From: an uncultured Candidatus Saccharibacteria bacterium | GTDB lineage: Bacteria > Patescibacteriota > WWE3 > 2-01-FULL-39-13 | NCBI GenBank assembly: GCA_965230915.1 | Contig: OZ246395.1 | Location: 12,019-76,018, forward strand | DNA: 64,000 nucleotides | Reading direction: 5' to 3' | In this document: positions 6,115 to 57,087 of the stretch, in pieces | Position numbering within the stretch: the first letter of the stretch is position 1 | Layout: each line of letters starts with the position of its first letter | The notes under the pieces: model-generated | What the model was told of the DNA's origin: nothing | Databases searched by the model: none | What the model saw: the letters and a program-made list of their open reading frames with translations, nothing else | Position numbers and translations under genes: made by a program

Positions 6115-7359
6115 ATGGATACTTTAAATCAATCTGCCCCAACTCCCAATAATTCTGCCGATAATCAAATTCCAAATAATAATGCACAAAATTCTGAATT
6201 TGCAGAAAAGGGCCCACTATTAAACTCGCGAATGAAGCGAAATATATTAATAGGATGTGGAATAGTTGCCGTATTAATAGCTGCTTTATTTGTAGGAGTT
6301 TTTGCTTACCAGCAAATGAATAAACCTCCTGCAATGATGCCACTTCCACCTGAACCTGTAGTTGAAAACCCTGAACCGGTACGCAGTGATACTCCACGTT
6401 TTGCGTATATTAAAAATGAAAAAAATATTTGGATTAGCAATATAAATGGGGAAGAAAAATTCAGCATTTTGGAACTTCCACTTACGAGTAAAAGTCGAGT
6501 CGTGTCACTAAGCTGGAAAGATAAAGATAATTTAAGCTATGTAACTTGCGATACAAGTACTAGCGTATGCGAAATTTCTACTTATAATTTTGAAACAAAA
6601 TCTATAAAACCTGAAGTTACTTCTACTGGCTCAACCCTTACAAAATTCGCATGGAGCAAAGATGGAAAATATCTAGCATACATAGAAAACCGTGGAAAAA
6701 ATACAAACCTACGCCTAAAACTTGGAACAATCGATAATATCCTAAAAACTTATGTGACCGATACAGAAGATGCGTCTCTTAGCAAATCAGTCGTAGATTT
6801 TAATGACGACAGCCAATATATTTTATATTCTTCTCCTGAACTTATTGTAAACGAGAATAAATCAACCACCCAAACTCAATCGGTCTATATTTATCAACTA
6901 AACGGCGCTCAAATCGATGAAATAAAGAATGTTGATTATCCGTTTTTCATTGATAACGACACAGTCGCATACAAATCAAACAATCGTCTGGTTTATAAAG
7001 ACGTAGGCACAACAGACGAATCAGCAATAACCGATTTTGCCGGATACAACCCAGCGCTTTCTCCGAACGATAATCAAATTGCATATTGGCGCGACGAGGT
7101 TGGCTTTAACAATGTTGTTTTAGGTGTTTATGAATCAGATAAAAATATCCACAGAAATATTTTGAGAGGAGTTATCTTGCCAGTTTGGGTTTCCCCAGAC
7201 AAAATTGTCGGAATAAAGGCCGACAGCTGTATTGGCGAACGATGTCTTTTATATGAATTTCAGACAACCAGTATGGTGATCGTCGATGTTAATAACGGAG
7301 AAGTTTTATCAGTAGACCAAGGAAAATCACTTACAGGAGTTGCCTTTTATGCCGATTAA
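6115..7359 (+). CDS. membrane-anchored protein with N/Q-rich N-terminus and TolB/PD40-like beta-propeller repeats
   Basis: Single TM (ILIGCGIVAVLIAALFVGVFAY); repeated ...DGKYLAY..., ...NDNQIAYWRDE... blades; overlaps the next gene by 20 nt (translational coupling). Confidence 0.5.
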   Translation: MDTLNQSAPTPNNSADNQIPNNNAQNSEFAEKGPLLNSRMKRNILIGCGIVAVLIAALFVGVFAYQQMNKPPAMMPLPPEPVVENPEPVRSDTPRFAYIKNEKNIWISNINGEEKFSILELPLTSKSRVVSLSWKDKDNLSYVTCDTSTSVCEISTYNFETKSIKPEVTSTGSTLTKFAWSKDGKYLAYIENRGKNTNLRLKLGTIDNILKTYVTDTEDASLSKSVVDFNDDSQYILYSSPELIVNENKSTTQTQSVYIYQLNGAQIDEIKNVDYPFFIDNDTVAYKSNNRLVYKDVGTTDESAITDFAGYNPALSPNDNQIAYWRDEVGFNNVVLGVYESDKNIHRNILRGVILPVWVSPDKIVGIKADSCIGERCLLYEFQTTSMVIVDVNNGEVLSVDQGKSLTGVAFYAD

Positions 7360-9217
7360 AGACGAATCACAAACAGCAGGTCGCCAGCATCCAATTCCGC
7401 AAAATGTTATGGATGTTGAATTTAAAGTTGTTGGAGATATTACCCTTCGCCAACTAATGTACCTTTTTGCTGGCGCAATTCTTGCCTATATTGTTTATAA
7501 ATCTGGCGCACCAGCATTCTGGAGGTATTTAATAGTATTCTTAACAGTCACAGGAACAATTGCAATTGCGTTTGTTCCATATGAGGAACGGGGACTAGAT
7601 AAATGGTTCATGAGTTTCATACGAGCCATGACTGCCCCCACTCAAATGGTGTGGCGAAAAACTTATTCTCCTCCCGCATATTTTTTATCTGATTATGCAA
7701 ACATTATTAAGAATGAAATTATCACTTTAACACCAGCAAAAAGTCGCAATAAATTAGATGATTATTTGGGTCAACTATCAGAATCTCAAAATGACCTAGA
7801 TAGAATTGAGGCCGCACGTTTGCAAAGTATTCGAATGGGATTTTCGACACAAGCCGGTGTTAGCGTTGTTACACAACAAGCCGCACCAAGCAGTTTTTCG
7901 CCTTCCTTAGGAGGAGGACCTACAACGGATGTAATTTTTGCCGATGAGCCAACAGCCCCAGGCCGAAGCATGTCTGACACACATGACGGAAATGCTCCGC
8001 ATGCTGAAATACAGCCGGTTCATGAAAAGGCCCCTGAACCACCAGAACAAACAAAACCTACGACAACTGAAAGTCCAAAGCCACAGCCAACACAACCAAA
8101 ACCTGAGACGAAACCAGAGCAAAATCAGGAAAACTTTGGGTCACAAAAATTGCAGCAGGCTCCAAAAAATGTTGAACAAAAGCCAATTACATCTACGCAA
8201 GCTCAACAACCAAAACCGCAGACGAAGCCGGTATCACCTGAACAAAAAGAAGCGTTAAAGGCTATCAAAGAAGATGAAGCTTCATCTAAAAAAGAATTAT
8301 TAGACTCAATCGAATTTAAAAAACCGACGTTGGGAGCACCAGCAGTTGATCGTGCAATAATAAATATTCCGTCGAATCCTAAAGGTGAAATCAAAATTAA
8401 TTTAACAACAAAATTGCCAAAAGTAATTGTGGTTCAAGATTTAAAAGAAATTCAGACAAAAGAATCGTCGCTAGAAAAAAGAGTCGGAGAACTTTTAGAA
8501 GTAGCAACTCAAGTAAGATCTGAAATGCAAGCGGCGGCTGACAAAGAAGCTCATAGAAATAAAAACCAAGGTCGTATCGAATTCTTTAATACAAAATATC
8601 AAGAACTTGAAAAAGAACGCGCAAAAATCACAACACAGCTTGATGAAAGTACAAGTCAGGTTCAACAAATTGGACAATCTGCAGATTCTGACCTAACTAA
8701 ACAGGTTCACGATCTATCGATTAAAAATGAAGAGCTAAAAGCTCAGCTTGCTCAAATTCAAGAAGAAATTAATATTTTAAGAGCAACACCTCAACAAACT
8801 GCTAAACCTGCTGAACCAGTGAAAGCTGCGGCTCAACAACCAAAAAAGCCTGAACCCACACCGGCTCCACCAAGAAATTCTGACCAAGCACAATCGTTAA
8901 ACCAGGTAACCCAATCAGATTACAAACCGGAAGATCCGAATAAAAAGGCTGTAGTTGACGCAAATTTAATCACAGGCACAGTGAAAAATAAAAAGGGCGA
9001 GCTAATTGATAACGCAGTCGTTATAATAAAAGATAAAGACGGTGATGCCATACGTGCTTTAAAGACAAATCAGTTGGGGCAGTTTAAAACACAGACTCCA
9101 ATGCAAAATGGCAAATACACAGTCGAAACAATTAAGGGAGGAATGAAGTTTGATATAATCTCGGTTGAAGCAAAAGGTCAACCAATTAGTCCACTTTCTA
9201 TCATCGCCTTCGAATAA
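7340..9217 (+). CDS. PrgI/VirB3-like membrane protein fused to a Pro/Gln/Lys-rich disordered region, a coiled coil and a C-terminal carboxypeptidase-regulatory-like beta-sandwich domain
   Basis: N-terminus GDITLRQLMYLFAGAILAYIVY plus a second TM helix matches the PrgI (VirB3) family signature; residues about 190-330 are low complexity (PEPPEQTKPTTTESPKPQPTQPKPETKPEQ); 370-470 heptad-rich; the last 100 aa (GTVKNKKGELIDNAVVIIKDKDGD...GKYTVE) resemble a CarboxypepD_reg fold. Confidence 0.55.
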   Translation: MPFMPIKDESQTAGRQHPIPQNVMDVEFKVVGDITLRQLMYLFAGAILAYIVYKSGAPAFWRYLIVFLTVTGTIAIAFVPYEERGLDKWFMSFIRAMTAPTQMVWRKTYSPPAYFLSDYANIIKNEIITLTPAKSRNKLDDYLGQLSESQNDLDRIEAARLQSIRMGFSTQAGVSVVTQQAAPSSFSPSLGGGPTTDVIFADEPTAPGRSMSDTHDGNAPHAEIQPVHEKAPEPPEQTKPTTTESPKPQPTQPKPETKPEQNQENFGSQKLQQAPKNVEQKPITSTQAQQPKPQTKPVSPEQKEALKAIKEDEASSKKELLDSIEFKKPTLGAPAVDRAIINIPSNPKGEIKINLTTKLPKVIVVQDLKEIQTKESSLEKRVGELLEVATQVRSEMQAAADKEAHRNKNQGRIEFFNTKYQELEKERAKITTQLDESTSQVQQIGQSADSDLTKQVHDLSIKNEELKAQLAQIQEEINILRATPQQTAKPAEPVKAAAQQPKKPEPTPAPPRNSDQAQSLNQVTQSDYKPEDPNKKAVVDANLITGTVKNKKGELIDNAVVIIKDKDGDAIRALKTNQLGQFKTQTPMQNGKYTVETIKGGMKFDIISVEAKGQPISPLSIIAFE

Positions 9218-9221
9218 TATT

Positions 9222-9920
9222 ATGGCCAAAAAATATTTAGCAACAACTCAAGAACATTTAGACATCTACGATATTAAAAATGGAATTGTTGTTTTAAAAA
9301 ACGGAAGTGCAGTTTGTATTTTGGAAACTAACGCAATTAACTTCGACCTTTTATCTATGATGGAGCAAGACGCAGCAATTTCTGCATACAGTAATCTTTT
9401 AAATTCATTAACTTTCCCTATTCAGGTTACTATTCGTTCTAAAAAAATGGATATCAGCGATTATTTAGAAAAAGTTAAAGAAGCCGAAAATAAACAGAGT
9501 AATCCCAAAATTAAAGAACAAATAGTTGCTTACAGAAAATTTATTCAAGAAGAACTTGTTACCAAAGAAGAAGTTTTGGATAAAAATTTTTATGTGACGA
9601 TTCCATATAAATTAACAAGCGTAGCAGCAAGTGATCCATTTGGATTCATTACAGATCTAGTCGGATTTCAAGCTAAACAACCAACCCGTGTAAATACAGA
9701 TAAAGTTTTAGAAGAAGCACGCGCAGATTTAGAACCAAAGAAAAACTTTTTGATAAAAGAATTTGCAAGAATTGGTATAAAAGCAACCGCTTTAAATACG
9801 GCAGATTTGATCAAGCTATTCTATGAAATATATAACAGTGAAACATCCCAGTCACAGAGAATTCGAGGAAATGTTGATGATTTTACGTCAGCTTTAGTTG
9901 AACCAAAGTTAAAGATTTAA
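9222..9920 (+). CDS. VirB4-family N-terminal-domain-like protein (separate ORF, same frame as the downstream ATPase)
   Basis: MAKKYLATTQEHLDIYDIKNGIVVLKNGSAVCILE..NFDLLS..EQDAAISAYSNLLNSLTFPIQV resembles the extreme N-terminus of TrsE/VirB4 proteins; the ORF-track start at 9165 overlaps the upstream gene, so the ATG at 9222 is preferred. Confidence 0.45.
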   Translation: MAKKYLATTQEHLDIYDIKNGIVVLKNGSAVCILETNAINFDLLSMMEQDAAISAYSNLLNSLTFPIQVTIRSKKMDISDYLEKVKEAENKQSNPKIKEQIVAYRKFIQEELVTKEEVLDKNFYVTIPYKLTSVAASDPFGFITDLVGFQAKQPTRVNTDKVLEEARADLEPKKNFLIKEFARIGIKATALNTADLIKLFYEIYNSETSQSQRIRGNVDDFTSALVEPKLKI

Positions 9921-9926
9921 AATAAT

Positions 9927-12335
9927 ATGGGACTATTTGGAAAATCAAAACCTAAAGAAGATACTTCAGAAACACTATCTCCAATGACTACAGTGAACAC
10001 TGGAGGGGCATCATCCGAAAGTTCTGTCTCAGCTTTTAGCGGAGTTTCAGAGCCTAAAACAAAATCTGTAAGAGCAGCAAAACCACAAAAACAAAAAGAT
10101 GAAACACCTGAACAAAAATTAGCACGAGGAATTCCATCGGTTCGAGATGTTATTGCTCCAAGTGCAATCGAAGTCGACTATAACTTTTTAAAAGTCGGAG
10201 ACAAATACTTTAGAACACTTTTTATTTCTGGATATCCACGTTTTGTCGGAGCAAACTGGCTTGAACCGATTATTAACTTTGACCACACTTTAACAATTTC
10301 GATGTTTTATTATCCGATAAACGCACGAAACGTTTTGGATGACTTGCGCCGAAAAATTGCAGAAATGGAAGCAACCATTAATATCGCACGTGAAAAAGGT
10401 AAAGTTATCGATCCCGGAGTTCAAGCGGCTTTAGAAGATGCAAAATCTTTACAGGAACAATTGGTAAAAGGTATTGAAAGATTTTTCCATTTTTCTTTTT
10501 ATGTAACTGTTTCGGCAAACACATTGGACGAATTAAATAACATTACATATCAAGTTGAATCTACTTTAGGATCTCTTTCTTTGATTTCGAAAAAAGCTAC
10601 ATTAGAAATGGAAGCCGCATTCCAGACAACAGTTCCTGTTTGTTTAGATAAATTAAAAATTATTCGTAACATGGACACCACTTCTGTTGCGACGACTTTT
10701 CCGTTTACTTCAAGCGAACTTACTTCAAACGAAGGTATTTTATATGGAGTTAACAAACACAACGGTTCATTAATTATTTTTGACCGTTTCTCTTTAGAAA
10801 ATGCGAACTCAGTAATCTTTGCAAAATCTGGTGCTGGTAAATCTTATTTGGTGAAACTCGAAGCTTTACGTTCACTTTTATTTGGAGTTGACCTGATCGT
10901 TATTGACCCCGAAACTGAATATCGAAAACTTTCTGACGCAGTTGGAGGAGAATACATCGACTTTAGTATTAACAGCTCTGCAAAAATTAATCCGTTTGAT
11001 TTGCCTGTTGTTCCTGAAGTTGAAGACCAACTTAGCATGAAGATATTAAGTTTGCACGCTTTATTCAGAATCATGTTGGGAGAACTATCAAGTTCAGAAT
11101 CGGCAGTTTTAGACCGCGCCTTAATCGACACTTACAGACTAAAAGGAATCACTCAAGACCCTAATACACAGCAAGATCGTGAACCTCCATTAATGGAAGA
11201 CCTGTATAAAGTTTTACTTGCGATGGACGAACCCGAGTCAAAATCTCTTGCCGAAAGAATGGAACGTTACATTAAAGGTTCGTTAGCAGGAGTTTTCGAC
11301 CAACGTTCAAATGTTTCTTTAGAAAATTCTTTTACAGTATTTTCTATTAGAAACTTACAAGATGTTTTGCGTCCAATCGCAATGTTCATGATTTTGGACT
11401 TTATTTGGACAAAAGTTAAACACGATTTAAAGAAACGTATATTGCTGTTAGACGAGGCTTGGACTTTGATGCAATATCCAGATTCAGCTGCATTCGTTTA
11501 TTCATTAGCAAAACGTGCAAGAAAATATTACTTGGGACTTACAACAATTACACAAGACGTTAACGACTTCTTAAATACAGATTATGGAAAAGCGGTTGTG
11601 ACCAACTCGTCTATACAAATTCTGTTAAAGCAGCACCCTGCAGCAATCGACAAAATTTCTGAAATTTTCTATTTGTCTCAAGGAGAAAGAAACTTTTTAT
11701 TGGCCGCCGGAATTGGAGAAGGATTATTCTTCGCCGGAACAAATCACGTTGCAATGCAAGTTAAAGCGTCACCACTTGAGCACCAACTGGTTACAACTAA
11801 TCCGAAAGAAGTTAAAGCTGAGCAAGACGAACAAAAGCAAAATAATGCGCCAGTTACACCGAGTATTCCACAAAGAAACGAGCAAGATTTTGAAAGATTA
11901 AAACAGAGATTCGAAACGGTGGATATTAATCAACCAAGAACACAACCTGCACCACAAGGTATGCCTCAGGCACAACCAATACAGCAACCTGGACAAACAC
12001 AAACGCAACAAATGCCAAATCCTTACCAGCAAACAAATCAGGGATATACACAAGCTCCGCAAGTTCAGATGCCGCAAACTAATGCACCTGCGCCAAGTGC
12101 GCCGCAACAAGGTGGACAAATGCCAAACCCATTTGAAAGACAATCTTTTAATGGATATCAAATGCCTGCGAATAATAATACGAACGGGGCACAACAAAAT
12201 AATTGGGCTCCGCAAAATCAACAGCAGCCAAATGCACAGCCACAAAACGGACAACCTAGCCAATCACCTAATCAGGGAACTATTCCGATTAATATGAATG
12301 GTGCTACTCCAACTCCGACTCCGCCTGGGTTTTAA
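9927..12335 (+). CDS. type IV secretion ATPase VirB4/TrsE/PrgJ family, with a long Q/P/N-rich C-terminal tail
   Basis: Walker A AKSGAGKS, Walker B ILLLDEAW, VirB4 N-domain motif (DYNFLKVGDKYFRTLFISGYPRFV); the C-terminal 190 aa are low-complexity (QQPGQTQTQQMPNPYQQTNQGY...). Confidence 0.85.
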   Translation: MGLFGKSKPKEDTSETLSPMTTVNTGGASSESSVSAFSGVSEPKTKSVRAAKPQKQKDETPEQKLARGIPSVRDVIAPSAIEVDYNFLKVGDKYFRTLFISGYPRFVGANWLEPIINFDHTLTISMFYYPINARNVLDDLRRKIAEMEATINIAREKGKVIDPGVQAALEDAKSLQEQLVKGIERFFHFSFYVTVSANTLDELNNITYQVESTLGSLSLISKKATLEMEAAFQTTVPVCLDKLKIIRNMDTTSVATTFPFTSSELTSNEGILYGVNKHNGSLIIFDRFSLENANSVIFAKSGAGKSYLVKLEALRSLLFGVDLIVIDPETEYRKLSDAVGGEYIDFSINSSAKINPFDLPVVPEVEDQLSMKILSLHALFRIMLGELSSSESAVLDRALIDTYRLKGITQDPNTQQDREPPLMEDLYKVLLAMDEPESKSLAERMERYIKGSLAGVFDQRSNVSLENSFTVFSIRNLQDVLRPIAMFMILDFIWTKVKHDLKKRILLLDEAWTLMQYPDSAAFVYSLAKRARKYYLGLTTITQDVNDFLNTDYGKAVVTNSSIQILLKQHPAAIDKISEIFYLSQGERNFLLAAGIGEGLFFAGTNHVAMQVKASPLEHQLVTTNPKEVKAEQDEQKQNNAPVTPSIPQRNEQDFERLKQRFETVDINQPRTQPAPQGMPQAQPIQQPGQTQTQQMPNPYQQTNQGYTQAPQVQMPQTNAPAPSAPQQGGQMPNPFERQSFNGYQMPANNNTNGAQQNNWAPQNQQQPNAQPQNGQPSQSPNQGTIPINMNGATPTPTPPGF

Positions 12336-27247: not shown

Positions 27248-27641
27248 GCTAATAATAAATACAGACGGAGGAGCAAGGGGTAATCCCGGGCCAGCCGCTA
27301 TTGGTATAACTTTAAGATCTGAATCAGGTGAAACAATTTTAAAGTATAAAGAAAAAATTGGTGAAACTACAAACAACGTTGCAGAATACCGCGCCTTAAT
27401 AAAAGGATTAGAATTAGCATTAGAAAACAAGGCAAGCGATGTCGAATGTATTTTAGATAGCGAATTGGTTGTAAAACAAGTGAACGGATTGTACCGCGTA
27501 AAAGAAGAAAGTTTAAAAATCCTTCATTCTGAGGTTAGAAATTTGTTATCAAAATTTAATTCTCACATGGTAAAACATGTTAAGAGAAAGGATAATTCTG
27601 CCGCAGATAAGCTTGTAAACGAAGCTCTCGACAACATTTAA
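27240..27641 (+). CDS. rnhA: ribonuclease H (RNase HI-like)
   Basis: INTDGGARGNPGPAAIG...NNVAEYRALI..L (DEDD-type catalytic residues); start moved to the internal ATG at 27240. Confidence 0.7.
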   Translation: MDKLIINTDGGARGNPGPAAIGITLRSESGETILKYKEKIGETTNNVAEYRALIKGLELALENKASDVECILDSELVVKQVNGLYRVKEESLKILHSEVRNLLSKFNSHMVKHVKRKDNSAADKLVNEALDNI

Positions 27642-33251: not shown

Positions 33252-33252
33252 A

Positions 33253-36200
33253 TTATCTCGACATATTACACGAAGCCGACCCCACACATGATTTTGGAAC
33301 GTTCTCCGGAATATATGAGCCAGGTTCTGGCGTGTCACTGTATCTAATTAATCTTAATGGTTTCCCTGGTCCAAGACATTCAACACTTGTGTTTACAAAT
33401 TCGTAGTGTAAGTGAGGTCCTGTTGAATTTCCCGATGTGCCCATTTCTCCAATTATCTGATTGGCTTCTATTTGTTGGCCAGTACTTACGGCTATTGAAG
33501 ACATATGGCCATATATAGTAGCAAAGCCTAATGGAGATATAACTTTTACATAATGGCCATATCCATCTGGATCATCGCCTCTGAAAGCTGTTCCATTATG
33601 GGTAGCTTTTATAGCTTGTCCTATACCCGAGGCCATGTCCAAAGCTTCTGCATTTTTATGGCTGTCATATGTATATGCTGTTTGAGTCAATGTAAAAGGT
33701 TGTGTCGGCCATCCTGCGGGACAAACCGAACAGCCACCTGCTCCAAATTTTGTACTTACCGATGCCTCGCCCTTTTTACCAGGGTCTTCTTCAACTGTTA
33801 CTTCTATATTGTTTAGATAAGTTCCATCCGTTGTTAAAATGTTTTCTAAGATAAATGGGGGAAGAGTTAATATTTGTCCCGGTTGAATTGTTCGTGACGG
33901 CAAATCTCCAAGATTTGGGAGGGCAACTTTTCCATAAGTAGCGTCTGATGTAACTTCAACAATACCTCCTCCGCTTGCGCATGATTTCGAATATAAAAGA
34001 GTATCGGTAAAGCCATCAATATTTAGAGGAATTGGATTTGGTGCATTTGTTGCCTCATCTATTGCCGTATCAGTAATGTTTCTAATTGTGATTGTGTATT
34101 CAATTCCGCTTCCGTTAGAAACCTGTCTGGCTGTTTTTGTAACCTGAAATTTTTTCGAGCTAATAACATCTGAATATGCGCCGCCTCCGGTTGACGGTTC
34201 CATCGGCGCCATCATTGCGATAATTCCTATTACAAAAATCATAGGGATGATAAAGCAAGAACATCCCCCAAGAACAATTCCTAATACAACACGGCTGACT
34301 GTACGAAGTTTCGCCATGAGCATTTCCCACGATGACTTGAATGCAAAAGAGAATTTTCCCTGCAGAATCTTTGATGTAAAATTCCAAACGACATCGCCAA
34401 CAGCAGCTAGTATGTAGCTGATTCCCCCGGTTACAATACCGGCCGAATTTGAAAGTATAAAGCCTAGGCTTTTTAGAACTACAGGACTCAAAAACTTTGT
34501 TAATGTTTTTGCAACAACGCTGGTTGCTATAGTCGGATTCGCGCCAAGGCCAGAGAATTTTGTACCAATACCTGTAAGGAATTTTACAAAGCCCCATTTT
34601 TCAACAGCACCCATTAAAAGTGTCTCGTCGCCAAAGCCGGAATTACGTAAAAGATCTTTGAAAGGTTCGAAGATCTTAACGGCAGTTTTAATTAATGCAT
34701 TATTGCCAGCGTATCCTCCCCAAAGAATTTCGCGGTATAAGAAGGTGTACATCGCATTTGCTGTACGGTTGTATTTATTTAATAAACCTGCAAAAGGTGC
34801 TGTAAATTGTTTTACTTTTCCTTCTTTTACAATTCTCGCTAAGAATTCAAAGCGATCAGCTAAACCTAGTGCAAATGAACCTGGATGATTGTTGGGATCA
34901 GATAAATATTCTAATAAGGCAAAACCTCCGGCATTCGGTGTATTCAAGTTTGTAATGTTTTGGCTAAGTTTTCCAACCTTCTCGGCTGTAGTTAGTCCTA
35001 ATCCTTCTGCCAATATTTCGAAACTTGTTGTAGGTACGTTGCCTGCAACAATCGAATTGCCAGCATTTCTAAGTTCGTCCATGAAGTTTCTTGCACGGTC
35101 GAGGTCGGCCAAAAGGTAGTCTGGGTCAAAATCTGCAATATTTGCAAAACCACAATCTAATAATAATTGGCCACCCGCGCCTGTAGATTTTCCCCATGAC
35201 TTATCTAAAACATCATATAAGCTGTAGTCCCCAAAAAGACCGTTAGATTTTTGTAGGCCGAAGCCGCTGGTAACTGCGGGTGCTCCATCTGGTACGATTT
35301 TTATTGCCGTTTGTGTCCATTGCGCATTGTTTGTTGGCCCTTGTCTCCAGCTTACGTATGTTTCGGCTTCGAATAATTTTTTCGGAGCGAGTCTTGAAAT
35401 TAGTTTTAAATCTTTAAGTTCGCCGGCTTCAAATGCAAGTCCGGTTGCTGTACCAATAAAGCCATTAAGCTTTCTTGTATTTCCAATAATATTAATTTTA
35501 TCGAGGTATTTTACATATTCGCTGACTGTTCCCCATCTAGGGTCTGTGAAGGGTAGGACGTTAAGCATTTTACTCGAAAGCAAAACGACTTCTATGAATT
35601 TTTTGCTTTCAATACTTTCTAATATTTCTTTTGTGGTAGATGCAAAGAACAAATTGTTAGCAATTTTCGATGACCTTGTAGCCGCCATTATTCTATCTCT
35701 TGCGATAGCTCCGGCAGAATTGATTCTTGTTGTTGCAGCCCCTACTTCGGCGTTTAATGTTGTAGGAATTCGAGTATCCGCAAAACTGACAAAAGGAGTG
35801 TCTCCTGGGATAGCGTATAAACTATTGAATTTAGCAAGTTCCGCTTCTCCTACGATTGTTTTTGCCGCATTGCTAATTCCGGCAAGAACTTCTGGCTGGT
35901 GCAATTTCGCCTGCAATTCAGCCTCAAGTGCTCGTTGAGTTTTTAATCTATCTAAATATCCCTTTTTTAAAAGTTGCTTTTCGCTTTCAAGAACAATACG
36001 AGGCCTGGGTGGTTGAGGTGTACCTGGTGGAGAACCTGCTGGTATAGCTGGTCTTGGTGCTGCTAAATTAGGAACGCTAAATAAATTGGCGTCGCTAAGT
36101 TGAGGAACATCTAGCTCGAATGCACTTGCGAATTCTGCACCTGCGGCATCTTTTAATTTTTCCTGATATAGACCTTGGTTTACAAACTCGCTTCTTAAAA

Positions 36201-37233
36201 ATGCTTTTGAAAATTCCTTGTTTTCGCCGGTTAGGTTATCCCAGATAGCATTTTGTTTTGCCGTCGCAGTTGCTGCATCTCCTAAGCCTAGGGCTTTTCT
36301 TAATTTTGCATCGTTGTTAAGGATATCGTTAAATGCATCATTTGCGTTTGTGATTCCATGTAAAGCGGCTTGCTCCTGGAATGTTTGTGAAAATGCTCCT
36401 TTGGATTCATAAATGCCAGGTCTGCCTGTTGCAGGATTTATTCCGCGTCTTTCTTTAACCTTTAATACGTCGTCTAAATTTATTCCAAGTTCACTGGCAA
36501 CAGCCCTGTTATAAGCAGTAATACTGCCTGTGTGATAAATGGAACGTGGGGTTGCACTTTCCATGTACCCTGACAACGCAGTTAGTTGTCCTGATAAATC
36601 TCTGTAGGCTTTATAACTTGCTTCACGGTTCGTACCCTGCTCCCAAACTTGCCTGTCTTCGTATCTGTCAGCTCCAATTGCTTGAACTAGTTTTATTTTT
36701 GATTGTGGACCTCCAATGCCGCCGACATCGACAAGGTCTTCCGTATCAACAACGCTAATTCCCAGGCCTTTAGCCACTCGAGTTCCTAAATTTTGTGGCT
36801 TAAGAACTTCTGACCCTTTAACTGTTGTTAAGTTACCTTTTGTTAATGCTTCAAGTACGTCGCTTCGTCGGTCGCCGGCAAGCTCATCAAGGTTCATGAT
36901 ATCGTTGCGAGTTTGTTGATTTAGCTTTTGTAATGTCTGTAGTGGCTCACTTATGAGTTTCGTTAAATCAACCTTTGTATTAACGCCTTTTACATCTAAT
37001 AATGCTTCCTGGCCCCCGGCAACAAAGGTGCTAATGATTGCTTCATCGACTTCATCTGAAATAGTGGCTCTTACCTGAAGGGTAGTTAAGTTTTGTTTGA
37101 AATCTTTGTCGTAAAAGCCAATTACATCTTTTACAATTCGATCCTTTATAGATCTTGGAACATCAATCGGAGCTCTATAAAATTCTTTTACAAAACTTCT
37201 TAATGTTAAATCGTCATTTTTTGGTGGCGGCAT
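33253..37233 (-). CDS. giant (1326 aa) protein with internal TM cluster and C-terminal M23/LytM metallopeptidase domain
   Basis: No signal peptide; hydrophilic N-terminal region of about 900 aa; 3-4 TM helices near residues 930-1010; C-terminus HNGTAFRGDDPDGYGHY...GTSGNSTGPHLHYEF (HxxxD and HxH zinc ligands). Confidence 0.6.
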   Translation of the reverse strand: MPPPKNDDLTLRSFVKEFYRAPIDVPRSIKDRIVKDVIGFYDKDFKQNLTTLQVRATISDEVDEAIISTFVAGGQEALLDVKGVNTKVDLTKLISEPLQTLQKLNQQTRNDIMNLDELAGDRRSDVLEALTKGNLTTVKGSEVLKPQNLGTRVAKGLGISVVDTEDLVDVGGIGGPQSKIKLVQAIGADRYEDRQVWEQGTNREASYKAYRDLSGQLTALSGYMESATPRSIYHTGSITAYNRAVASELGINLDDVLKVKERRGINPATGRPGIYESKGAFSQTFQEQAALHGITNANDAFNDILNNDAKLRKALGLGDAATATAKQNAIWDNLTGENKEFSKAFLRSEFVNQGLYQEKLKDAAGAEFASAFELDVPQLSDANLFSVPNLAAPRPAIPAGSPPGTPQPPRPRIVLESEKQLLKKGYLDRLKTQRALEAELQAKLHQPEVLAGISNAAKTIVGEAELAKFNSLYAIPGDTPFVSFADTRIPTTLNAEVGAATTRINSAGAIARDRIMAATRSSKIANNLFFASTTKEILESIESKKFIEVVLLSSKMLNVLPFTDPRWGTVSEYVKYLDKINIIGNTRKLNGFIGTATGLAFEAGELKDLKLISRLAPKKLFEAETYVSWRQGPTNNAQWTQTAIKIVPDGAPAVTSGFGLQKSNGLFGDYSLYDVLDKSWGKSTGAGGQLLLDCGFANIADFDPDYLLADLDRARNFMDELRNAGNSIVAGNVPTTSFEILAEGLGLTTAEKVGKLSQNITNLNTPNAGGFALLEYLSDPNNHPGSFALGLADRFEFLARIVKEGKVKQFTAPFAGLLNKYNRTANAMYTFLYREILWGGYAGNNALIKTAVKIFEPFKDLLRNSGFGDETLLMGAVEKWGFVKFLTGIGTKFSGLGANPTIATSVVAKTLTKFLSPVVLKSLGFILSNSAGIVTGGISYILAAVGDVVWNFTSKILQGKFSFAFKSSWEMLMAKLRTVSRVVLGIVLGGCSCFIIPMIFVIGIIAMMAPMEPSTGGGAYSDVISSKKFQVTKTARQVSNGSGIEYTITIRNITDTAIDEATNAPNPIPLNIDGFTDTLLYSKSCASGGGIVEVTSDATYGKVALPNLGDLPSRTIQPGQILTLPPFILENILTTDGTYLNNIEVTVEEDPGKKGEASVSTKFGAGGCSVCPAGWPTQPFTLTQTAYTYDSHKNAEALDMASGIGQAIKATHNGTAFRGDDPDGYGHYVKVISPLGFATIYGHMSSIAVSTGQQIEANQIIGEMGTSGNSTGPHLHYEFVNTSVECLGPGKPLRLIRYSDTPEPGSYIPENVPKSCVGSASCNMSR

Positions 37234-37281
37234 GTGTTATATTAATTGATTAAAGTATACATGTATGATTTAATTATTACG

Positions 37282-38649
37282 ATGAAATTTTACACAAAGG
37301 CGAAACATATAATTGTAACAGCTTTGATATTTTTTACCATTTTTTCATTTGTATTTCCTGTTATTGTTAGCGCGCAATCAGAAGACGATGTTTTTTACCC
37401 CGGGCTAGGCCGTATAGGTGAACAACTTTCAATGAGATATTGGGCGAAAACATTTGTTATGGGGACTGCAGTTGACGTTACTTTAGCAATTGCATGCGGA
37501 GGAGAAAACGATAAAGAAAATACATGGGGAACTCCAAATGGTGCAGAAAATTGTGTCCCTCCGATTGAACGTGTAAGCGCAAGTTTGCAGGGTGACCAAC
37601 CCAGAATGATGGGAGGACTTGCTTCTGTAAGTGCCTTAGCGATGGACTATAGCGTTAACGAGCCAATGATTCCAACAGACATGGCGTTATTTTTAGATGA
37701 TACATTCGATCAAACTCTATTTTCATCACCATCATATGCACAGAACTTACCAGAGAATTTATCTAAACCAGATGAATTTTTTCAATCAGCTACATACACA
37801 CTTTGGAAAAGCGCCAGAAATATAGCACTAGGGCTATTAGGTGTGTTATTAGGAATTGCAGGACTTAGCATTTTATTCAGAAGTAAACTTAGCCCACAGG
37901 TTACAGTTACTGTTGCAAATGTTTTACCTTATTTGCCACTCTCAATTATTGGTATCGTTTTATCGTATCCAATAATTGCAGTTATATTTAATTTATTAGA
38001 GCCATTATTATCAATTGCTTGGGCATTAGGAGCTGGAATTGTTGTAGAGCTATCTGTTGGTGCGGTTGATACATCAAGAGGTGTTTATGCTTTAGTTGGG
38101 CAATCATTTAAAGCTCTTCTAAGCCCTATGACTTGGTTAGGTGTAAGTAATATTGCAACAATTTCTTTTATTTTAGTCTTGATCATGCTTGTCGCATTGG
38201 TCATGGTTTTAATCGCTACCGCCAGATATATCTTTGAATATGCTAAAACAATGGTTCTTTTTGTTTTTTACGTTATAGCTTTTCCATTGCTTTCAGCAAT
38301 CGCAATCTTGCCAGGTAAACAGAATTTATTTTCTGTATTATTCAAGAAAGTTTTGGCCAATTTATTAGCCTTGCCGATAATGACCTTATTTACTCTAATT
38401 GGTCTTGGGTTTATCGCTTCTATACTTCCAGCTGTTCAAAGCGGAGCTTCAACCGGTTTACTTGGGTTAGAATACATTAGTGTTGGAGGAAATATATTTG
38501 CAGCCATTGTTAGATTCGCAATCGGTTGGGGAATAGTATGGAATTCATTTAAAGCTAGAAAAATGTTAGAAGACTTCTTTGGTGCAGGCGGATCATTGGC
38601 ATCAACCTTCCAAGGTGGCGGATCATCAGGCCCTCCAGGAAAGAAATAA
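37282..38649 (+). CDS. polytopic (about 8 TM) membrane protein with signal peptide and extracytoplasmic N-domain, VirB6/TrbL-like candidate
   Basis: Signal MKFYTKAKHIIVTALIFFTIFSFVFPVIVSAQS; extracytoplasmic domain of about 120 aa, then multiple TM; Gly-rich tail. The ORF-track start at 37246 leaves only 12 bp to the divergent gene, so the ATG at 37282 is preferred. Confidence 0.4.
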   Translation: MKFYTKAKHIIVTALIFFTIFSFVFPVIVSAQSEDDVFYPGLGRIGEQLSMRYWAKTFVMGTAVDVTLAIACGGENDKENTWGTPNGAENCVPPIERVSASLQGDQPRMMGGLASVSALAMDYSVNEPMIPTDMALFLDDTFDQTLFSSPSYAQNLPENLSKPDEFFQSATYTLWKSARNIALGLLGVLLGIAGLSILFRSKLSPQVTVTVANVLPYLPLSIIGIVLSYPIIAVIFNLLEPLLSIAWALGAGIVVELSVGAVDTSRGVYALVGQSFKALLSPMTWLGVSNIATISFILVLIMLVALVMVLIATARYIFEYAKTMVLFVFYVIAFPLLSAIAILPGKQNLFSVLFKKVLANLLALPIMTLFTLIGLGFIASILPAVQSGASTGLLGLEYISVGGNIFAAIVRFAIGWGIVWNSFKARKMLEDFFGAGGSLASTFQGGGSSGPPGKK

Positions 38650-38697
38650 CCTATCCTAACCTAAATAATCTTTTTATAAATATAAAGTTGAAGTAAA

Positions 38698-39093
38698 TTA
38701 GAGTGTATCGTTGACGAAAGTGCTTAGTGCGTCTAACCAGAATTGAACATTTCCCAATCCAAAGAATGCTAAGAAAAGGTTTAGTAAAAATCCACCACCA
38801 CCTATTACAACAAAGGCTAACAGCAGAGTATACGGCCACTGATGTGCCAGTTCTTCTAAAACACTAGAGTTTTCTCGGTTCATTGCAGTTTTGTATATCA
38901 AAAACATTGAGATAATTATTGCGACGGCAACCAATATGATTTGGAATGTGGTCCATGCTTTTGGAACAGCACAATTTATGTAGCTTCCAACGTCGAAGTA
39001 ATATCCTGAATCTGCGGGTAAATTCCACCCGTCTGTACCTGTATATGAGGCGCCAGAATCATTAATATATGAAGTGTTATAACAATCCGCCAT
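38698..39093 (-). CDS. VirB2/TrbC-like two-helix membrane protein (paralog 1) with small Cys-containing N-domain
   Basis: TM1 FQIILVAVAIIISMFLIY, loop KTAMNRENSSVLEELAHQWPY, TM2 TLLLAFVVIGGGGFLLNLFLAFFGL. Confidence 0.4.
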   Translation of the reverse strand: MADCYNTSYINDSGASYTGTDGWNLPADSGYYFDVGSYINCAVPKAWTTFQIILVAVAIIISMFLIYKTAMNRENSSVLEELAHQWPYTLLLAFVVIGGGGFLLNLFLAFFGLGNVQFWLDALSTFVNDTL

Positions 39094-39170
39094 AATTTTC
39101 TCTTATAATTTTAACAGATTGCCATTTAATTACTAATAGATTAAGTGTTAAAATAATAACAACTCATAAT

Positions 39171-40268
39171 ATGTACTTAACAATGCGAAAATTACTTGCA
39201 ATTTTTATATTAGCTATATCTCCGCTTTTTATTTTTTCTAACCGAGTATCAGCAAGAACAACACCAGACCCTGGCTACGGTATGGAGGCTCAATATATCG
39301 GTGAACCAGAAGTCACTCCCGAAAAAATTAAATTCAAGTTTATTGTAATGAATACTGGCAAGCTTAAATCTTGGGGCATAGATGTATATGTGGTCGGCTT
39401 TACAAGTAAGGGTTGTACTTATAGTCCTTCGCCCAATTTTAATATTGATGATCCTAATAATTCTTTTGGTTACAGTGGTCACCCTCCTACAGAATTTGAG
39501 GCAGAATGTACGATTACTACAGCTGTAGCTTCTGACCTTGATGGAGATATGTATCTCGATATATATAATGATGGAGAAGCCTGGGGGCCAAATAGTGATG
39601 TGATTATTGGCAGTAAGGCAATACAATATGATTTCGGATTTGGATCGGTAAGTTTCGACGGGTATCCAGAGGCACTAGGTGGAAATGTTTTTAAATTTAA
39701 ATTAACAGCTGGTCCTCGCGCAGTTGGTATAAATACTAATTTAGTTGTATCAAGTCCTTCGATACCTGCTTCATGGAATGGCGGGGGTGTATATAACTGT
39801 CCTGAAGTTAATTTTCCAGCATTAGGTGGAGTGGAAACAAAAGAAATTCAATGCGATTTTAACCAATTATCTCCGGGGAATTATAATATAGCAGCTGTTC
39901 TTGGTAAGCCAAGCGTCAGTGATACTGGAGGTGACACATTTGATACAACCGCGATAACCATTGTTGCCCCAGGGCAGCCACCGGTTCAACCTGGGGGCCC
40001 AGGTGGACCACCCATTGTTCCGCAATATAGTTTATTTGACTTGAATTCGTTCTTTGGACTTTTGCAAAATATAATAATTGCAATCGCTGTTGTTTCAGGT
40101 ATTTTTATTATTCCTTATGCATTTATATTAATGGCTAGTGGAAACCCTGAAAAAATTAAGCAAGGTACGGAATGGTTAAAGTCGATTTTATGGGGGTACT
40201 TGGTTGTCTTCTTAGCTGCAACCTTAATAAGATTTGTCGGAAGCGATATCTTAAGCCTCGGGATTTAA
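39171..40268 (+). CDS. secreted 365-aa protein: N-terminal extracellular domain, Pro/Gly linker, C-terminal VirB2-like hairpin (paralog 2)
   Basis: Signal peptide; beta-rich domain; GQPPVQPGGPGGPPIVPQ linker; C-terminus IIIAIAVVSGIFIIPYAFILMASGNPEKIKQGTEWLKSILWGYLVVFLAATLIRFV aligns with the loop motif of ORF 42329. Confidence 0.45.
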   Translation: MYLTMRKLLAIFILAISPLFIFSNRVSARTTPDPGYGMEAQYIGEPEVTPEKIKFKFIVMNTGKLKSWGIDVYVVGFTSKGCTYSPSPNFNIDDPNNSFGYSGHPPTEFEAECTITTAVASDLDGDMYLDIYNDGEAWGPNSDVIIGSKAIQYDFGFGSVSFDGYPEALGGNVFKFKLTAGPRAVGINTNLVVSSPSIPASWNGGGVYNCPEVNFPALGGVETKEIQCDFNQLSPGNYNIAAVLGKPSVSDTGGDTFDTTAITIVAPGQPPVQPGGPGGPPIVPQYSLFDLNSFFGLLQNIIIAIAVVSGIFIIPYAFILMASGNPEKIKQGTEWLKSILWGYLVVFLAATLIRFVGSDILSLGI

Positions 40269-40384
40269 CTGAATTTACCAAATTATTTTTCCAAAAAGGT
40301 CCTCGGCTATATTGTCTTCGACAGATTATTAGACTGCGAAATTTTTTGTCAAAATAATTTGGTAAATTCACACAGCTGGCTTGC

Positions 40385-42220
40385 CTAATCTTTCACTTCT
40401 ATATTAAATAGGGCGCTTTTTATTTGAAGTGCTCCTGGGGCTCTAAGGTTAAATATAGCTTTAAAATCGTCTCCGCTAACTTTCATTTCTCCTTTATTAG
40501 TTTTAATTTTTACTTCTGAAGTTTCTCCACCTGAAGAATAAGTTACACTTACGTCGCTTACTTTGGTTATGCCTGACTTATCAGCGACATCATCGCGTGA
40601 CCATGTATCGTCGATGTCTTCTCCCCAACAACTTTCTGCATCAACTTGAGATAAGTGCTTTTGGTTATCTTTATCTTCTTTATACAAAGCGACGGCGCCA
40701 ACAATATCTGCAAATTCTTTTTCGGTTAACCATGGATGTTTGCGACCGCATGCTTCGCCGCCTCTAGTTTTGTACCAGCCTTTATAGAACCATGGGGAAC
40801 CACCTTTGCTTTCATAAGCTTCGCTTGTCCAACAATCTCTAGAACCGCATTTTGTATCCCAGCCACCCTTGGTTTTGTGACCTAAACTAGTGTATTGATA
40901 GTTATATCCACCGGATGAAGCGGCATATAGTGCTGAAAATATTTGATCGGTATCATTTCCGATCATTACCATACCTTTTGTTTCTTCAACTGCTTGATGC
41001 CATCGTGCAGCGGAGGATGCGGTGGCCTTTGATGACGACCAAACCTGACAACTTTCCGTGGTGCAAATCCTGCCTCCGCCCCCGCCACTACCATTGCGCC
41101 ATCCGACATATGCCATTGCGTATGTACGTGCAGCTATAGCTTGAGCTTTTAGAGCTTCCATTGGCCAATCGGCCGGCATTTCTGCGAGTCCTTTTAGATA
41201 TTTCCCATCTAGTGACATTTCCCCTTTATCTGTATTAATAGTATCTGGAAGATCCGGCTTGGTAATATCGACATCACCATAATATGCTTTCAAAATATCT
41301 TTGTAGTTTTGGCCAGATTCAGCACGGCCTTTTGCCCCATATTGGCTTAAACCCTGTCTATGTGGAGCTCCAAAAGAGAACCCTGCAAAGGCCGGTGAAA
41401 ATCCGGGATTATAATTAGCTTGTGATGCAGCGTCGCCCGTAGATGGAACATCTCCCACACTAGTAGTAAATGTTCCAGTTTTAGCTTCTAATAGTGATTT
41501 TTGTTTTGCAGATAATTCGTTAAGCTTGCGCTCTAGGCTGGCTTTTTCGTTTGAAACATTCCTAAGTTGTGCCTGTTGAGTCGCCGCCTGGGCTGATAGT
41601 TTTGAAACTAAAGTTTGAACCTCTTTTTTTTGCGTCTCTACCTGTGCTTTTATAGCTTCAACTTCCTTTTTATCACTTTCATATTGGGCAATATTTCCAT
41701 TGAGAGAGCCTATAAATTGTTTTGAGCTGTCGATAAAGCTTAAATGATATGCGGCATCTTCTGCAGCCTTAGAAAGGCTTGAAGTTGAGAAGAGCATCTC
41801 TAATAAGCTTTGCTGGTTCGATATATATAAACTTCTAACTGTTTTATCGCGGATTTTTGTGCTTGAATCTAGCTCAATCTTTTTTAGATCAAGTTTCTTA
41901 TTTAGGTTTGAGATATCATCTGTTAGCCCTTTGATTTGTGAATTTAAAGAATTAATCTGGCTTTGATTAACATTAATCTGGCCAGTTAAGTTCTTTATAG
42001 CTGCAGATATTGAATCGGCTTTCGCTTTTATATCGCTTAATTTGCCTTCTGTTTCTTTGATATCTTTCTCAAGCTCTTCTATTTCGGCATCTTCATCAGC
42101 ATATGAATAGGTGGTAAACTGGCTAGATATAGCCAACACAGATATGAAAGTGTAAAGAGTGAGCAAAAAGATCTTAAGTAATGTCTTTGGGGCTCTATTT
42201 CGATTTGGCAGCATCTCCAT
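40385..42220 (-). CDS. membrane-anchored coiled-coil protein with SpoIID/LytB domain (peptidoglycan-remodelling)
   Basis: N-terminal TM; about 200 aa of heptad-rich coiled coil; SpoIID signature ...ALKAQAIAARTYAMAYVGWRNG...; strong Gly-rich loops. Confidence 0.62.
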   Translation of the reverse strand: MEMLPNRNRAPKTLLKIFLLTLYTFISVLAISSQFTTYSYADEDAEIEELEKDIKETEGKLSDIKAKADSISAAIKNLTGQINVNQSQINSLNSQIKGLTDDISNLNKKLDLKKIELDSSTKIRDKTVRSLYISNQQSLLEMLFSTSSLSKAAEDAAYHLSFIDSSKQFIGSLNGNIAQYESDKKEVEAIKAQVETQKKEVQTLVSKLSAQAATQQAQLRNVSNEKASLERKLNELSAKQKSLLEAKTGTFTTSVGDVPSTGDAASQANYNPGFSPAFAGFSFGAPHRQGLSQYGAKGRAESGQNYKDILKAYYGDVDITKPDLPDTINTDKGEMSLDGKYLKGLAEMPADWPMEALKAQAIAARTYAMAYVGWRNGSGGGGGRICTTESCQVWSSSKATASSAARWHQAVEETKGMVMIGNDTDQIFSALYAASSGGYNYQYTSLGHKTKGGWDTKCGSRDCWTSEAYESKGGSPWFYKGWYKTRGGEACGRKHPWLTEKEFADIVGAVALYKEDKDNQKHLSQVDAESCWGEDIDDTWSRDDVADKSGITKVSDVSVTYSSGGETSEVKIKTNKGEMKVSGDDFKAIFNLRAPGALQIKSALFNIEVKD

Positions 42221-42328
42221 TGAATTATTATAGCATTTAGTTTACAATACTATGATTTTATGGATACAATTGTAGTAAGTTAGTTAGTCAAAATTATTTT
42301 AATTAAAAAACACCAAGGAGGTGTAAGA

Positions 42329-42748
42329 ATGAACAAGGTTAAATATTTAAGCTCTTTAATAGTAGCAGGAGCAACTTTAGCGGCAACTACAGTCGCAGCT
42401 AATGCACAACCATCAGGCGGAATCAGCGCTTCATCATTAAAGGTTACTAGCAGTATCGGAAACATCACAGACATATCTACTGGTGTAACTTTCATTTTGA
42501 ACTTATTCGTATATTTAGGATGGATCGGAGTTATAGTTGGAGTTGGTTTAGCTGTATTTGGTTTGGTATACAAACTTATAAATACTGATAGCGAAGAAGC
42601 AATGAAAACTGTTCAAGGCTACTTGACCAAAGCTGTTTTGATTGTTGTTGCTGGTATTTTATTGATCGGTGCAGGATTTATCGTAAAGACTGTCGCTGGT
42701 TTATTCAATGTAACACCATTAACAGTATCATCGTTTAGTTCTCAATAA
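42329..42748 (+). CDS. VirB2/TrbC pilin-like protein (paralog 3), probably highly expressed
   Basis: Strong SD AAGGAGGTG 7 nt upstream; signal peptide ...TTVAANA; TM1-loop(DSEEAMKTVQGYLTK)-TM2 architecture. Confidence 0.55.
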   Translation: MNKVKYLSSLIVAGATLAATTVAANAQPSGGISASSLKVTSSIGNITDISTGVTFILNLFVYLGWIGVIVGVGLAVFGLVYKLINTDSEEAMKTVQGYLTKAVLIVVAGILLIGAGFIVKTVAGLFNVTPLTVSSFSSQ

Positions 42749-42820
42749 AGATAGCTAAAACCGTGTGCAAGAAGTTGGCGAGCTTTTTTAAAGATTGTCA
42801 TTCTTGCACATTTTTAATAT

Positions 42821-43180
42821 ATGTCTTGTGACTCATTTTTAGATTGTATAAACGATCCAATCGTAGATAACAAATTACCCGCAGAGAATATTGTTGTAGA
42901 TGTCAGCACTACTACTATTTACGTTGTAAACTTATCCTTATTTGCTTTTCAAGTAATATTATTTGTGGCGGTTGTTTATTTTATATTTAAAGGCATTCTT
43001 TCCATAATTCGCGCTGATTCTTCAGAAGCATTCGAAAAATTCCAAGGGGCTATTACTAATGCTGTTTTTGCTGCCGTTGGCTTAGTTCTGCTAGTTGGCT
43101 CAAGATTTATATTCGTGGCTGTTTTGAGAATGGTGGGGATTCCAGATGCGGAAAATCTCTTTATTAACTTACCTTTCTAG
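42821..43180 (+). CDS. VirB2/TrbC-like two-helix protein (paralog 4)
   Basis: Loop DSSEAFEKFQGAITN is homologous to the loop of ORF 42329; flanked by two hydrophobic helices. Confidence 0.45.
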   Translation: MSCDSFLDCINDPIVDNKLPAENIVVDVSTTTIYVVNLSLFAFQVILFVAVVYFIFKGILSIIRADSSEAFEKFQGAITNAVFAAVGLVLLVGSRFIFVAVLRMVGIPDAENLFINLPF

Positions 43181-56917: not shown

Positions 56918-57087
56918 ATTTCGTGAGAAGTTTACAAGCTTCGAAACGAAATGAGATTCGCGTACATTAGTACGTGAAGATTCAATCTTTGTGAACGAAT
57001 TTTAATTTCATTGTTCAAAATATTTAATCTCCTCCAGATAAGCTTTGAAAGTAGTGTAAATATTTCAACCTTAAGGAGGTGAGTATA

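Follow-up and report, generated by a model that had tools for sequence, protein, structure and literature searches.

Patescibacteria are host-dependent and carry a chromosomal MPF-FATA-like type IV secretion system (T4SS) near dnaA/dnaN, with no relaxase (PMC12102498). VirB2-like pilins were reported in 1948 assemblies and lie near virB4 in only 1135 of these 1948 (PMC12102498). They often stand in arrays, of which 441 were counted in 383 assemblies, with 2-11 divergent genes and a mean identity of 25% (Quiñonero-Coronel 2025, PMC12102498). The one tractable species, Southlakia epibionticum, cannot grow as an epibiont without the T4SS and its pilin array. It has a VirB6-like gene, SEML1_0013, followed by six PF18895 pilin genes, SEML1_0014-0019 (Wang 2023, PMC10633639), and these pilins are required for the epibiont to grow on its host (PMC10633639; review PMC12857230). 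Here we analysed a 64,000-nucleotide stretch (the window) of contig OZ246395.1, from the assembly GCA_965230915.1 of an uncultured Candidatus Saccharibacteria bacterium, which contains four genes for small two-helix proteins, named A to D. Our results suggested, with a probability of roughly 0.7, that A-D are a VirB2-like pilin set of the PF18895 superfamily serving the chromosomal Gram-positive-type T4SS of a Patescibacteria/CPR bacterium that is probably WWE3-like, with the subunit roles proposed below.

The four open reading frames (ORFs) are as follows.

38698..39093, minus strand: A, an A-type pilin-like protein of 131 amino acids (aa), taken from the ORF list
39171..40268, plus strand: B, a B-type modular pilin of 365 aa, with a PF18895 match at its hairpin
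42329..42748, plus strand: C, a C-type pilin of 139 aa, with BLASTP similarity to D and a hairpin in its AF2 model
42821..43180, plus strand: D, a D-type pilin-like protein of 119 aa, a paralog of C with a sub-threshold PF18895 match

A adjoins B and is divergent from it (A on the minus, B on the plus strand), C adjoins D, and a single SpoIID gene lies between the two pairs. Hydropathy showed in each protein two hydrophobic segments on either side of a polar loop of 15-20 aa, and the PF18895-like unit of two long hydrophobic helices with a short polar loop (~70-80 aa) is seen in all four; for B and C, AF2 models were available as further evidence of the helices. A preliminary description of the window, made from its letters alone, had reported four ORFs with a shared two-helix architecture. 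All of them were found where it placed them, although the minus strand of A had gone unremarked. The four loop motifs that it listed are also present, in the order C, D, B, A and not in ORF order. No fifth pilin was found among the 342 ORFs of at least 50 aa in the window with family hidden Markov models (HMMs) and a hydropathy screen, and a Pfam scan of small ORFs with two transmembrane segments near virB4 gave no additional pilin.

This locus is similar to the published patescibacterial arrays (S. epibionticum, N. lyticus TM7x), which likewise consist of divergent PF18895-type two-helix proteins encoded in tandem or one gene apart, follow a polytopic VirB6-like gene, show a mean paralog identity of ~25% and belong to a chromosomal MPF-FATA-like T4SS without relaxase near dnaA. 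A-D also form an array in the sense of the published survey, i.e. at least two pilin genes in tandem or separated by one gene, with VirB4 in the genome (PMC12102498). Unlike the published arrays, the module here lies 26 kb from virB4, only one of its four members would pass the HMM criteria of the survey, two members have no signal peptide, and one has a 236-aa ectodomain. Since two of the types escape the Pfam profiles used in surveys, the pilin counts obtained in this way are too low. A text search of the published array papers found no description of ectodomain-fused pilins or of fixed orthologous subunit types. Pilin arrays in Patescibacteria are already published and the gain here is incremental. 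Modestly new are the four-type architecture, the two profile-escaping types, the signal-peptide loss in A and D, and a modular pilin with a hypervariable part as an adhesin candidate.

The relatedness of the four proteins was then assessed. C and D are similar by BLASTP (E = 1.8e-13, 30% identity over 83 aa), and no other pairwise similarity was detectable among A-D; A is tied to B, C and D by profile-profile comparison only. With an A-family profile of 35 sequences, hhalign aligned the A family with the C family at a probability of 91% (E 1e-6), in register from the signal peptide to helix 2, and with the B hairpin at E 1.5e-4. Alignments of 3 sequences gave nothing significant, and significance came only with the 35-sequence A-family profile. 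Because membrane hairpins may match on composition, signal peptides were trimmed, and reversed and locally permuted profiles were employed as controls, with the following scores.

A-C: real 36.3, null 15.8 ± 3.6, reached by 0 of 40 permuted controls
A-B: real 31.7, null 13.5 ± 2.7, reached by 0 of 40 permuted controls
C-B: real 26.0, null 12.2 ± 2.2, reached by 0 of 40 permuted controls
A-D: real 29.1, null 15.1 ± 3.2, reached by 0 of 40 permuted controls

No reversed control was as high as the real score for any of these pairs. The D-B comparison alone was not significant. Since the trimmed A-C, A-B, C-B and A-D scores exceed all controls, A-D are one remote-homology family. The preliminary description had stated that the four hairpins share the same architecture, and their similarity held on formal alignment, by BLASTP for C and D and by controlled profile-profile comparison for the others.

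By its sequence score, B alone qualifies formally as a member of PF18895 (T4SS_pilin), the pilin family of Pfam. It scored 30.1 bits (E 5e-7, cutoff 26.6), with aa 291-356 aligned to positions 9-71 of the 71-position model; the B-family consensus (29.9 bits) and L007:5474-5854, an unfused B-type ortholog (30.3 bits), scored similarly. D reached 17.7 bits (E 0.0039), under the gathering score of 26.6, and A and C gave no PF18895 match at E<=1 and no Pfam match of any kind for the proteins themselves. Weak PF18895 matches were observed in 1 of 35 A-type and 3 of 23 C/D-type relatives, and searching with the A- and C/D-family consensus sequences brought no improvement over the single proteins. 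The preliminary description had called the four proteins VirB2/TrbC-like and pointed to the TrbC/VirB2 profile PF04956. That alignment was run, and no protein or consensus reached the cutoff of 27.9 bits; the T4SS pilin identity stands through B in PF18895, and membership in PF04956 fell away for all four. The best PF04956 score was that of the A-family consensus (17.4 bits, E 0.005), and unrelated membrane-protein matches were equally strong. The TrbC/VirB2/TraA pilins (PF04956; F, T, RP4 and R388 pili) are alike in being small, with a signal peptide (here predicted in B and C), two helices and a polar loop, in the predicted topology of both termini outside and the loop inside, and in being encoded with VirB4 and a polytopic membrane protein. 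Unlike them, A-D matched neither PF04956 nor any solved pilin sequence or fold significantly, have longer helices (~36 aa), belong to a monoderm host with no outer-membrane core complex, and show no sign of cyclisation or acetylation. A VirB2-like hairpin together with a wall-less or monoderm MPF-FATA-type T4SS is also found in the Mbov_0395 family of a Mycoplasma integrative and conjugative element (NF045849, pilin-like conjugal transfer protein). The B hairpin aligned to 14-76 of the 80 model positions with an E of 0.0017 only (18 bits), and since the cutoff is 40, B is not a member of this family. Fold searches did not distinguish the hairpin from any other helical hairpin, and searches of PDB sequences and folds are uninformative for a fold this simple.

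The window is a chromosome segment (GC ~37%) with dnaA, dnaN, yidC, leuS, groEL, recA and ftsH. The genes that bear on the pilin set are listed below.

7340-9217, plus strand: 625-aa protein with a PrgI/VirB3-like domain (PF12666 PrgI, 37.8 bits)
9165-9920, plus strand: TrsD/VirB4-N-like protein of 251 aa (NF041427 TrsD, E 2.4e-7)
9927-12335, plus strand: VirB4 ATPase of the CD1110 family (NF045971, 387.5 bits, cutoff 325)
14563-15351: YidC
33253..37233, minus strand: M23-domain membrane protein of 1326 aa (PF01551, 74.4 bits; NCBIfam peptidoglycan hydrolase models)
37246..38649, plus strand: polytopic membrane protein of 467 aa (from hydropathy)
40385..42220, minus strand: SpoIID/LytB coiled-coil protein of 611 aa (PF08486, 71.8 bits; TIGR02669, 123 bits)

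The core at 7340..12335 also matches PF19044/PF12846 and is adjacent to dnaN and dnaA, as in the layout known from other Patescibacteria (PMC12102498). By these profile matches the genome encodes a T4SS core of the monoderm (Gram-positive) type. The pilin array starts ~26 kb, roughly at least 20 coding sequences (CDS), downstream of virB4; the survey criterion is ±20 CDS. In the 467-aa protein, an N-terminal transmembrane (TM) segment and an ectodomain of ~145 aa are followed by no fewer than 5 TM segments (189-431). This protein gave no match in Pfam, NCBIfam or PDB. Its topology and its place directly ahead of the pilin genes, where S. epibionticum has a VirB6-like protein, suggest that it may be VirB6-like. 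In the 1326-aa protein, the M23 peptidoglycan endopeptidase domain is C-terminal and TM segments lie at 931-1014. This protein is syntenic in the related loci L001 and L003 and is a candidate for a VirB1-like wall-opening role. The SpoIID/LytB domain is a domain of peptidoglycan remodelling.

Nine related loci from genomes or metagenomes cover the region (L001, L003, L005-L009, L018, L019), and all of them show the same arrangement. The order in all nine is polytopic protein (plus), A (minus), B (plus), SpoIID (minus), C (plus, 1-3 copies) and D (plus), every type is represented by a separate ortholog with its place and strand kept, and the SpoIID gene lies between the A/B and C/D pairs in every one. 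The SpoIID protein is 58-81% identical in 7 loci and the polytopic protein 29-59%. In the closest relative, L001, the identity to the window was 81% for SpoIID, 77% for C (the highest among the pilins), 66% for D, 62% for A, 59% for the polytopic protein and 43% for the M23 protein. This 1:1 orthology of every type, with neither order nor orientation changed, argues that A-D are old, specialised paralogs, i.e. fixed subunit types, and not antigenic variants. Four conserved, non-interchangeable types in this WWE3-like lineage thus point to a defined multi-subunit structure.

C is the candidate major subunit. It consists of a signal peptide (aa 1-26), an S/T-rich N-tail, a helix at 49-84, the loop NTDSEEAMKTVQGYLTK, a helix at 89-125 and an S/T-rich C-tail. 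Cleavage is predicted between …TVAANA and QPSGG, and the A-Q at the site is invariant. The AF2 model of C is a helical hairpin (H49-84 / H89-125) with a pLDDT of 74-93. A Shine-Dalgarno sequence lies directly upstream.

42315..42323, plus strand: Shine-Dalgarno sequence AAGGAGGTG, 5 nucleotides (nt) before the ATG of C

There are just two copies of the motif in the window, at 42315 and 57073, and the strong ribosome-binding site and signal-peptide-like N-terminus of C agree with the preliminary description. The second copy (57073-57081) falls on the listed start of ORF 57079-57699, for which Pfam gave no match; because the listed GTG of that ORF belongs to the motif, its true start is probably further downstream. 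Twelve C homologs were found at 58-77% identity, and the C orthologs are 48-77% identical; the metagenome-assembled genomes of these relatives bear the label candidate division WWE3 or uncultured Saccharibacteria. Conservation within the C family was 0.88 for the loop, 0.80 for the helices and 0.43-0.47 for the N- and C-tails. The number of C-type copies is 1-3 across genomes (2-3 in some others). The strong Shine-Dalgarno sequence, the signal peptide, the highest conservation and the amplification in relatives suggested that C is likely the major structural subunit. The exposed tails of C are Ser/Thr-rich and a GT-C glycosyltransferase gene lies nearby, and O-glycosylation of the pilin is conceivable.

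Signal-peptide-like N-termini exist only in B and C among the four. Read by eye from the sequence, both are typical peptides with AxA-type sites, and none was seen in A and D, where a signal peptide is impossible because the ATG is 3 (A) and 1 (D) codons past an in-frame stop. A has an acidic N-tail of 46 aa with a conserved Cys pair (C4/C41), helix 1 at ~47-67, the loop KTAMNRENSSVLEELAHQ, helix 2 at ~88-113 and a C-tail. D has an acidic N-tail with two Cys (MSCDSFLDC…), helix 1, the loop RADSSEAFEKFQGAIT and helix 2. A word-indexed homolog search with A found nothing beyond A itself, and its relatives came via synteny and exhaustive phmmer, which gave 38 cluster representatives at E<=1e-3. 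Most A-family relatives have a signal peptide followed by C-Y…C, and the Cys pair of the N-tail is almost invariant in the family. Syntenic orthologs of A are present in L021 and in the nine loci named above, and D orthologs that keep the MxC…C start were found in L001, L004, L008 and L009, the last three being distant genomes. A and D have lost the signal peptide of most family members and retained the acidic N-tail with the Cys pair. This loss implies either a signal-peptide-independent translocation of the N-tail or another topology.

Several A relatives carry additional domains. P0034 (598 aa) has a signal peptide and an N-terminal weak GH42-like domain (21.3 bits, cutoff 21), followed by the hairpin. 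P0052 (318 aa) has Asp-rich Ca-binding-like repeats with Cys that are C-terminal to the hairpin, and the C-terminal tail of P0051 (207 aa) is rich in Cys. The modular form of VirB2-like pilin is thus not confined to the B type, and the N-terminal fusion in P0034 and the C-terminal one in P0052 mean that either terminus can bear a secreted-type domain.

B is the modular member of the set. Its parts are as follows.

39171-39254, plus strand: signal peptide (aa 1-28), predicted to be cleaved between MYLTMRKLLAIFILAISPLFIFSNRVSA and R
39255-39962, plus strand: beta-rich ectodomain (aa 29-264), from AF2 secondary structure
39963-40031, plus strand: Pro/Gly linker (aa 265-287)
40032-40265, plus strand: pilin hairpin (aa 288-365), PF18895

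The AF2 model has beta strands at 38-264 and helices at 288-322 and 326-364, with a mean pLDDT of only 57.8. The beta-rich domain and the Pro/Gly linker described earlier ahead of the hairpin in the 365-aa member were borne out by this low-confidence model. A Foldseek search of PDB with B returned generic tandem Ig-like/FN3/Calx-beta matches only (TM < 0.3); because the model is of low confidence, the label 'Ig-like adhesin' should be read as a generic one. The relatives of B have hairpins of 64-75% identity and different or larger ectodomains. Between B and its L001 ortholog the hairpin is 75% identical, and the ectodomain only 27% (159 aa aligned, E 1e-3), against 59-81% for the neighbouring genes in the same comparison. 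The B-types measure 126 (unfused, L007), 320, 329, 365, 390, 490, 511, 511, 517, 523 and 575 aa, and their N-terminal parts are unrelated or rearranged. A search of Joint Genome Institute (JGI) metagenomes with the B hairpin found nothing; scans with the C family did return related loci. These comparisons indicate that, among the four pilins, only the B ectodomain is hypervariable. In the B-types of 490-575 aa (L001, L003, L005, L006), a Cys-rich module (…C.C…C.CAC…) lies directly before the hairpin, and the B of the window has the Pro/Gly linker in its place. The same module, after a poly-Gly run, is at the C-terminus of a C-type pilin (L006:8001-8576).

Modular pilus adhesins exist in other pilus classes, e.g. 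FimH with a lectin and a pilin domain (chaperone-usher) and the type IV pilin PilB of S. sanguinis. The analogy is that one module for polymerisation is joined to another for binding, and a minor subunit displays the adhesin. Unlike in FimH and PilB, the polymerisation module here would be a C-terminal VirB2-like hairpin, and the folds and assembly machines are unrelated. No adhesin for a patescibacterial T4SS was found in the published survey, where VirB5- and PrgB-type proteins are absent. The fast-evolving B ectodomain could be the host-binding adhesin that is absent from the known parts of this system, and given that the published surveys contain no adhesin, B is a concrete candidate for host recognition. 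A wider proposal is that the B-types are adhesins and host-range determinants of patescibacterial T4SSs, i.e. VirB2-like hairpins with swappable ectodomains (Ig-like sandwiches, Cys-rich modules and the glycoside-hydrolase-like domain of the A lineage). We regard this proposal as tentative and somewhat doubtful. If it is true, a monoderm T4SS filament displays exchangeable binding or enzymatic heads on its pilin subunits, and an ectodomain swap on a conserved hairpin decides to which host an epibiont attaches or from which it feeds.

For the assembly of the pilin set we propose the following scheme. Each pilin would form a helical hairpin across the cytoplasmic membrane, its two termini exposed outside and its polar loop facing the cytoplasm. 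K/R residues number 0-1 in the acidic tails and 2-3 in the loops. This charge pattern, the terminal fusions of P0034 and P0052 and the N-tail Cys pair of the A family point, on computational grounds, to the termini-out/loop-in topology of TrbC/VirB2. Insertion of B and C would proceed via Sec and signal peptidase, and that of A and D by N-tail translocation, with YidC (14563-15351) as one possible route. Next, the VirB4 ATPase, together with the adjacent polytopic protein (VirB6-like), may draw subunits out of the membrane and pile them up as a filament or conduit, and the M23 and SpoIID enzymes may make the hole in the wall for its passage. C is predicted to be the major, highly expressed structural subunit, and A and D could be low-abundance specialised subunits, e.g. 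for initiation, base or capping. B would be a modular minor pilin whose hairpin is anchored in the filament and whose tandem beta-sandwich ectodomain is displayed outside, possibly as a host-cell binding module in place of VirB5/PrgB-type adhesins.

Several observations weigh against such a pilin set. A, C and D are under the PF18895 threshold, none of A-D reaches that of PF04956, and the C- and A-family profiles, run against PDB sequences, brought up no pilin and only membrane-protein noise. A distance of 26 kb separates the pilin module from VirB4, no similarity of the 467-aa protein to VirB6, TrbL or PrgH was detected, the missing signal peptide of A and D is unusual among VirB2-type pilins, and the model of B is of low confidence, with an alignment of 4 sequences. 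In addition, no patescibacterial T4SS has so far been seen to form a filament, and a 2025 review gives it as a possibility only (PMC12857230). This last point, together with the mostly pilus-free state of Gram-positive-type T4SSs, also favours the strongest competing explanation, in which A-D are VirB2-like homologs that build no extracellular pilus and remain in or close to the membrane, as stoichiometric components of the T4SS channel or of a short conduit spanning the wall. B would in that case be a surface protein anchored in the membrane, with the hairpin as an anchor or docking element. Consistently, the helices (~36 aa) are hydrophobic along their whole length, four conserved non-interchangeable types resemble the parts of a complex, and P0034 and P0052 reuse the hairpin to anchor diverse ectodomains. 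However, the pattern in the C family, with conserved loop and helices and variable exposed tails, is as expected of a polymer subunit, and the very strong ribosome-binding site of C and its tandem amplification in relatives suit a bulk structural protein. There is also a weak kinship to the pilus-forming TrbC/VirB2 proteins (one A-family member matched PF04956 with E 0.006), and the S. epibionticum pilins match both PF18895 and PF04956. We consider a pilus-free channel rather unlikely beside the pilin set.

The preliminary description had also suggested antigenic or functional diversification of the paralogs. On a reading of this kind, A-D would serve mainly antigenic or host-range variation, as interchangeable major pilins that alternate or diversify fast, and Bartonella and Anaplasma have VirB2 arrays for which this has been proposed. 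The low identity of the paralogs (<=30%, and pairwise undetectable except for C and D) and the variation in C-type copies between genomes (1-3) agree with this idea, which was also offered in the published study of patescibacterial arrays. It is disfavoured by the orthology of each type in a fixed order across all spanning loci: the types stay 1:1 orthologous with order and orientation kept, while the SpoIID neighbours are only 58-81% identical. The types also differ in fixed traits (signal peptide, Cys pairs, ectodomain), and C orthologs with 48-77% identity are not fast-evolving, which leaves only the B ectodomain as variable. We judge such variation to be quite improbable. An unrelated family of two-helix membrane proteins, i.e. 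holins paired with hydrolases or class II bacteriocin/immunity peptides, would account for small hairpin proteins beside an M23 peptidase and a SpoIID-domain protein, and the fold searches were non-specific. Nevertheless, the only specific family match is T4SS_pilin, phage, bacteriocin export and immunity genes are absent nearby, where the neighbours are housekeeping or T4SS genes, and the locus is chromosomal and conserved beside housekeeping genes in many genomes. The predicted cleavable signal peptides of B and C and an ectodomain of 250-490 aa are also ill-suited to a holin. A holin or class II bacteriocin identity was rejected, with no Pfam or NCBIfam profile match at E<=1 and no supporting context, and this explanation is hardly credible.

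Further features of the window were noted around the T4SS genes. These genes lie in two blocks, 7340-12335 and 28381-43180, flanking the dnaN-yidC-dnaA region; the first contains the PrgI-like, TrsD-like and VirB4 genes, and the second, ~26 kb away, the hydrolases, the polytopic protein and the pilins. Besides the PrgI domain, the 625-aa protein has a coiled coil as well as a CarboxypepD_reg-like domain. Upstream of the M23 protein are two proteins with one N-terminal TM segment each, of 1281 aa (28381-32226, minus strand) and 370 aa (32226-33338, minus strand), in an arrangement kept in L001 and L003. They had no match in Pfam, NCBIfam or PDB, and may be T4SS components, e.g. with VirB8-like or surface roles. 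A promoter scan of the window stayed at chance (33 sites versus 33.1 expected), and terminators were likewise at chance level. The interval that separates the ribosomal L25 gene from the T4SS-associated block encodes an RNase H / RVT_3-type protein of 142 aa (27213-27641, plus strand) and a DUF4012 protein of 944 aa (23711-26545, minus strand); both genes appear unrelated to the pilin finding. On the other side of the array, the GT-C glycosyltransferase gene (PMT_2, 38 bits; 43169-45421, minus strand) is convergent with C and D and overlaps the end of D by 12 nt. It is followed by the gene for a polytopic protein of 449 aa with no family (45901-47250, minus strand). At the position of the GT-C gene, L001 has no such gene and L003 has GT87 and PAP2 genes.

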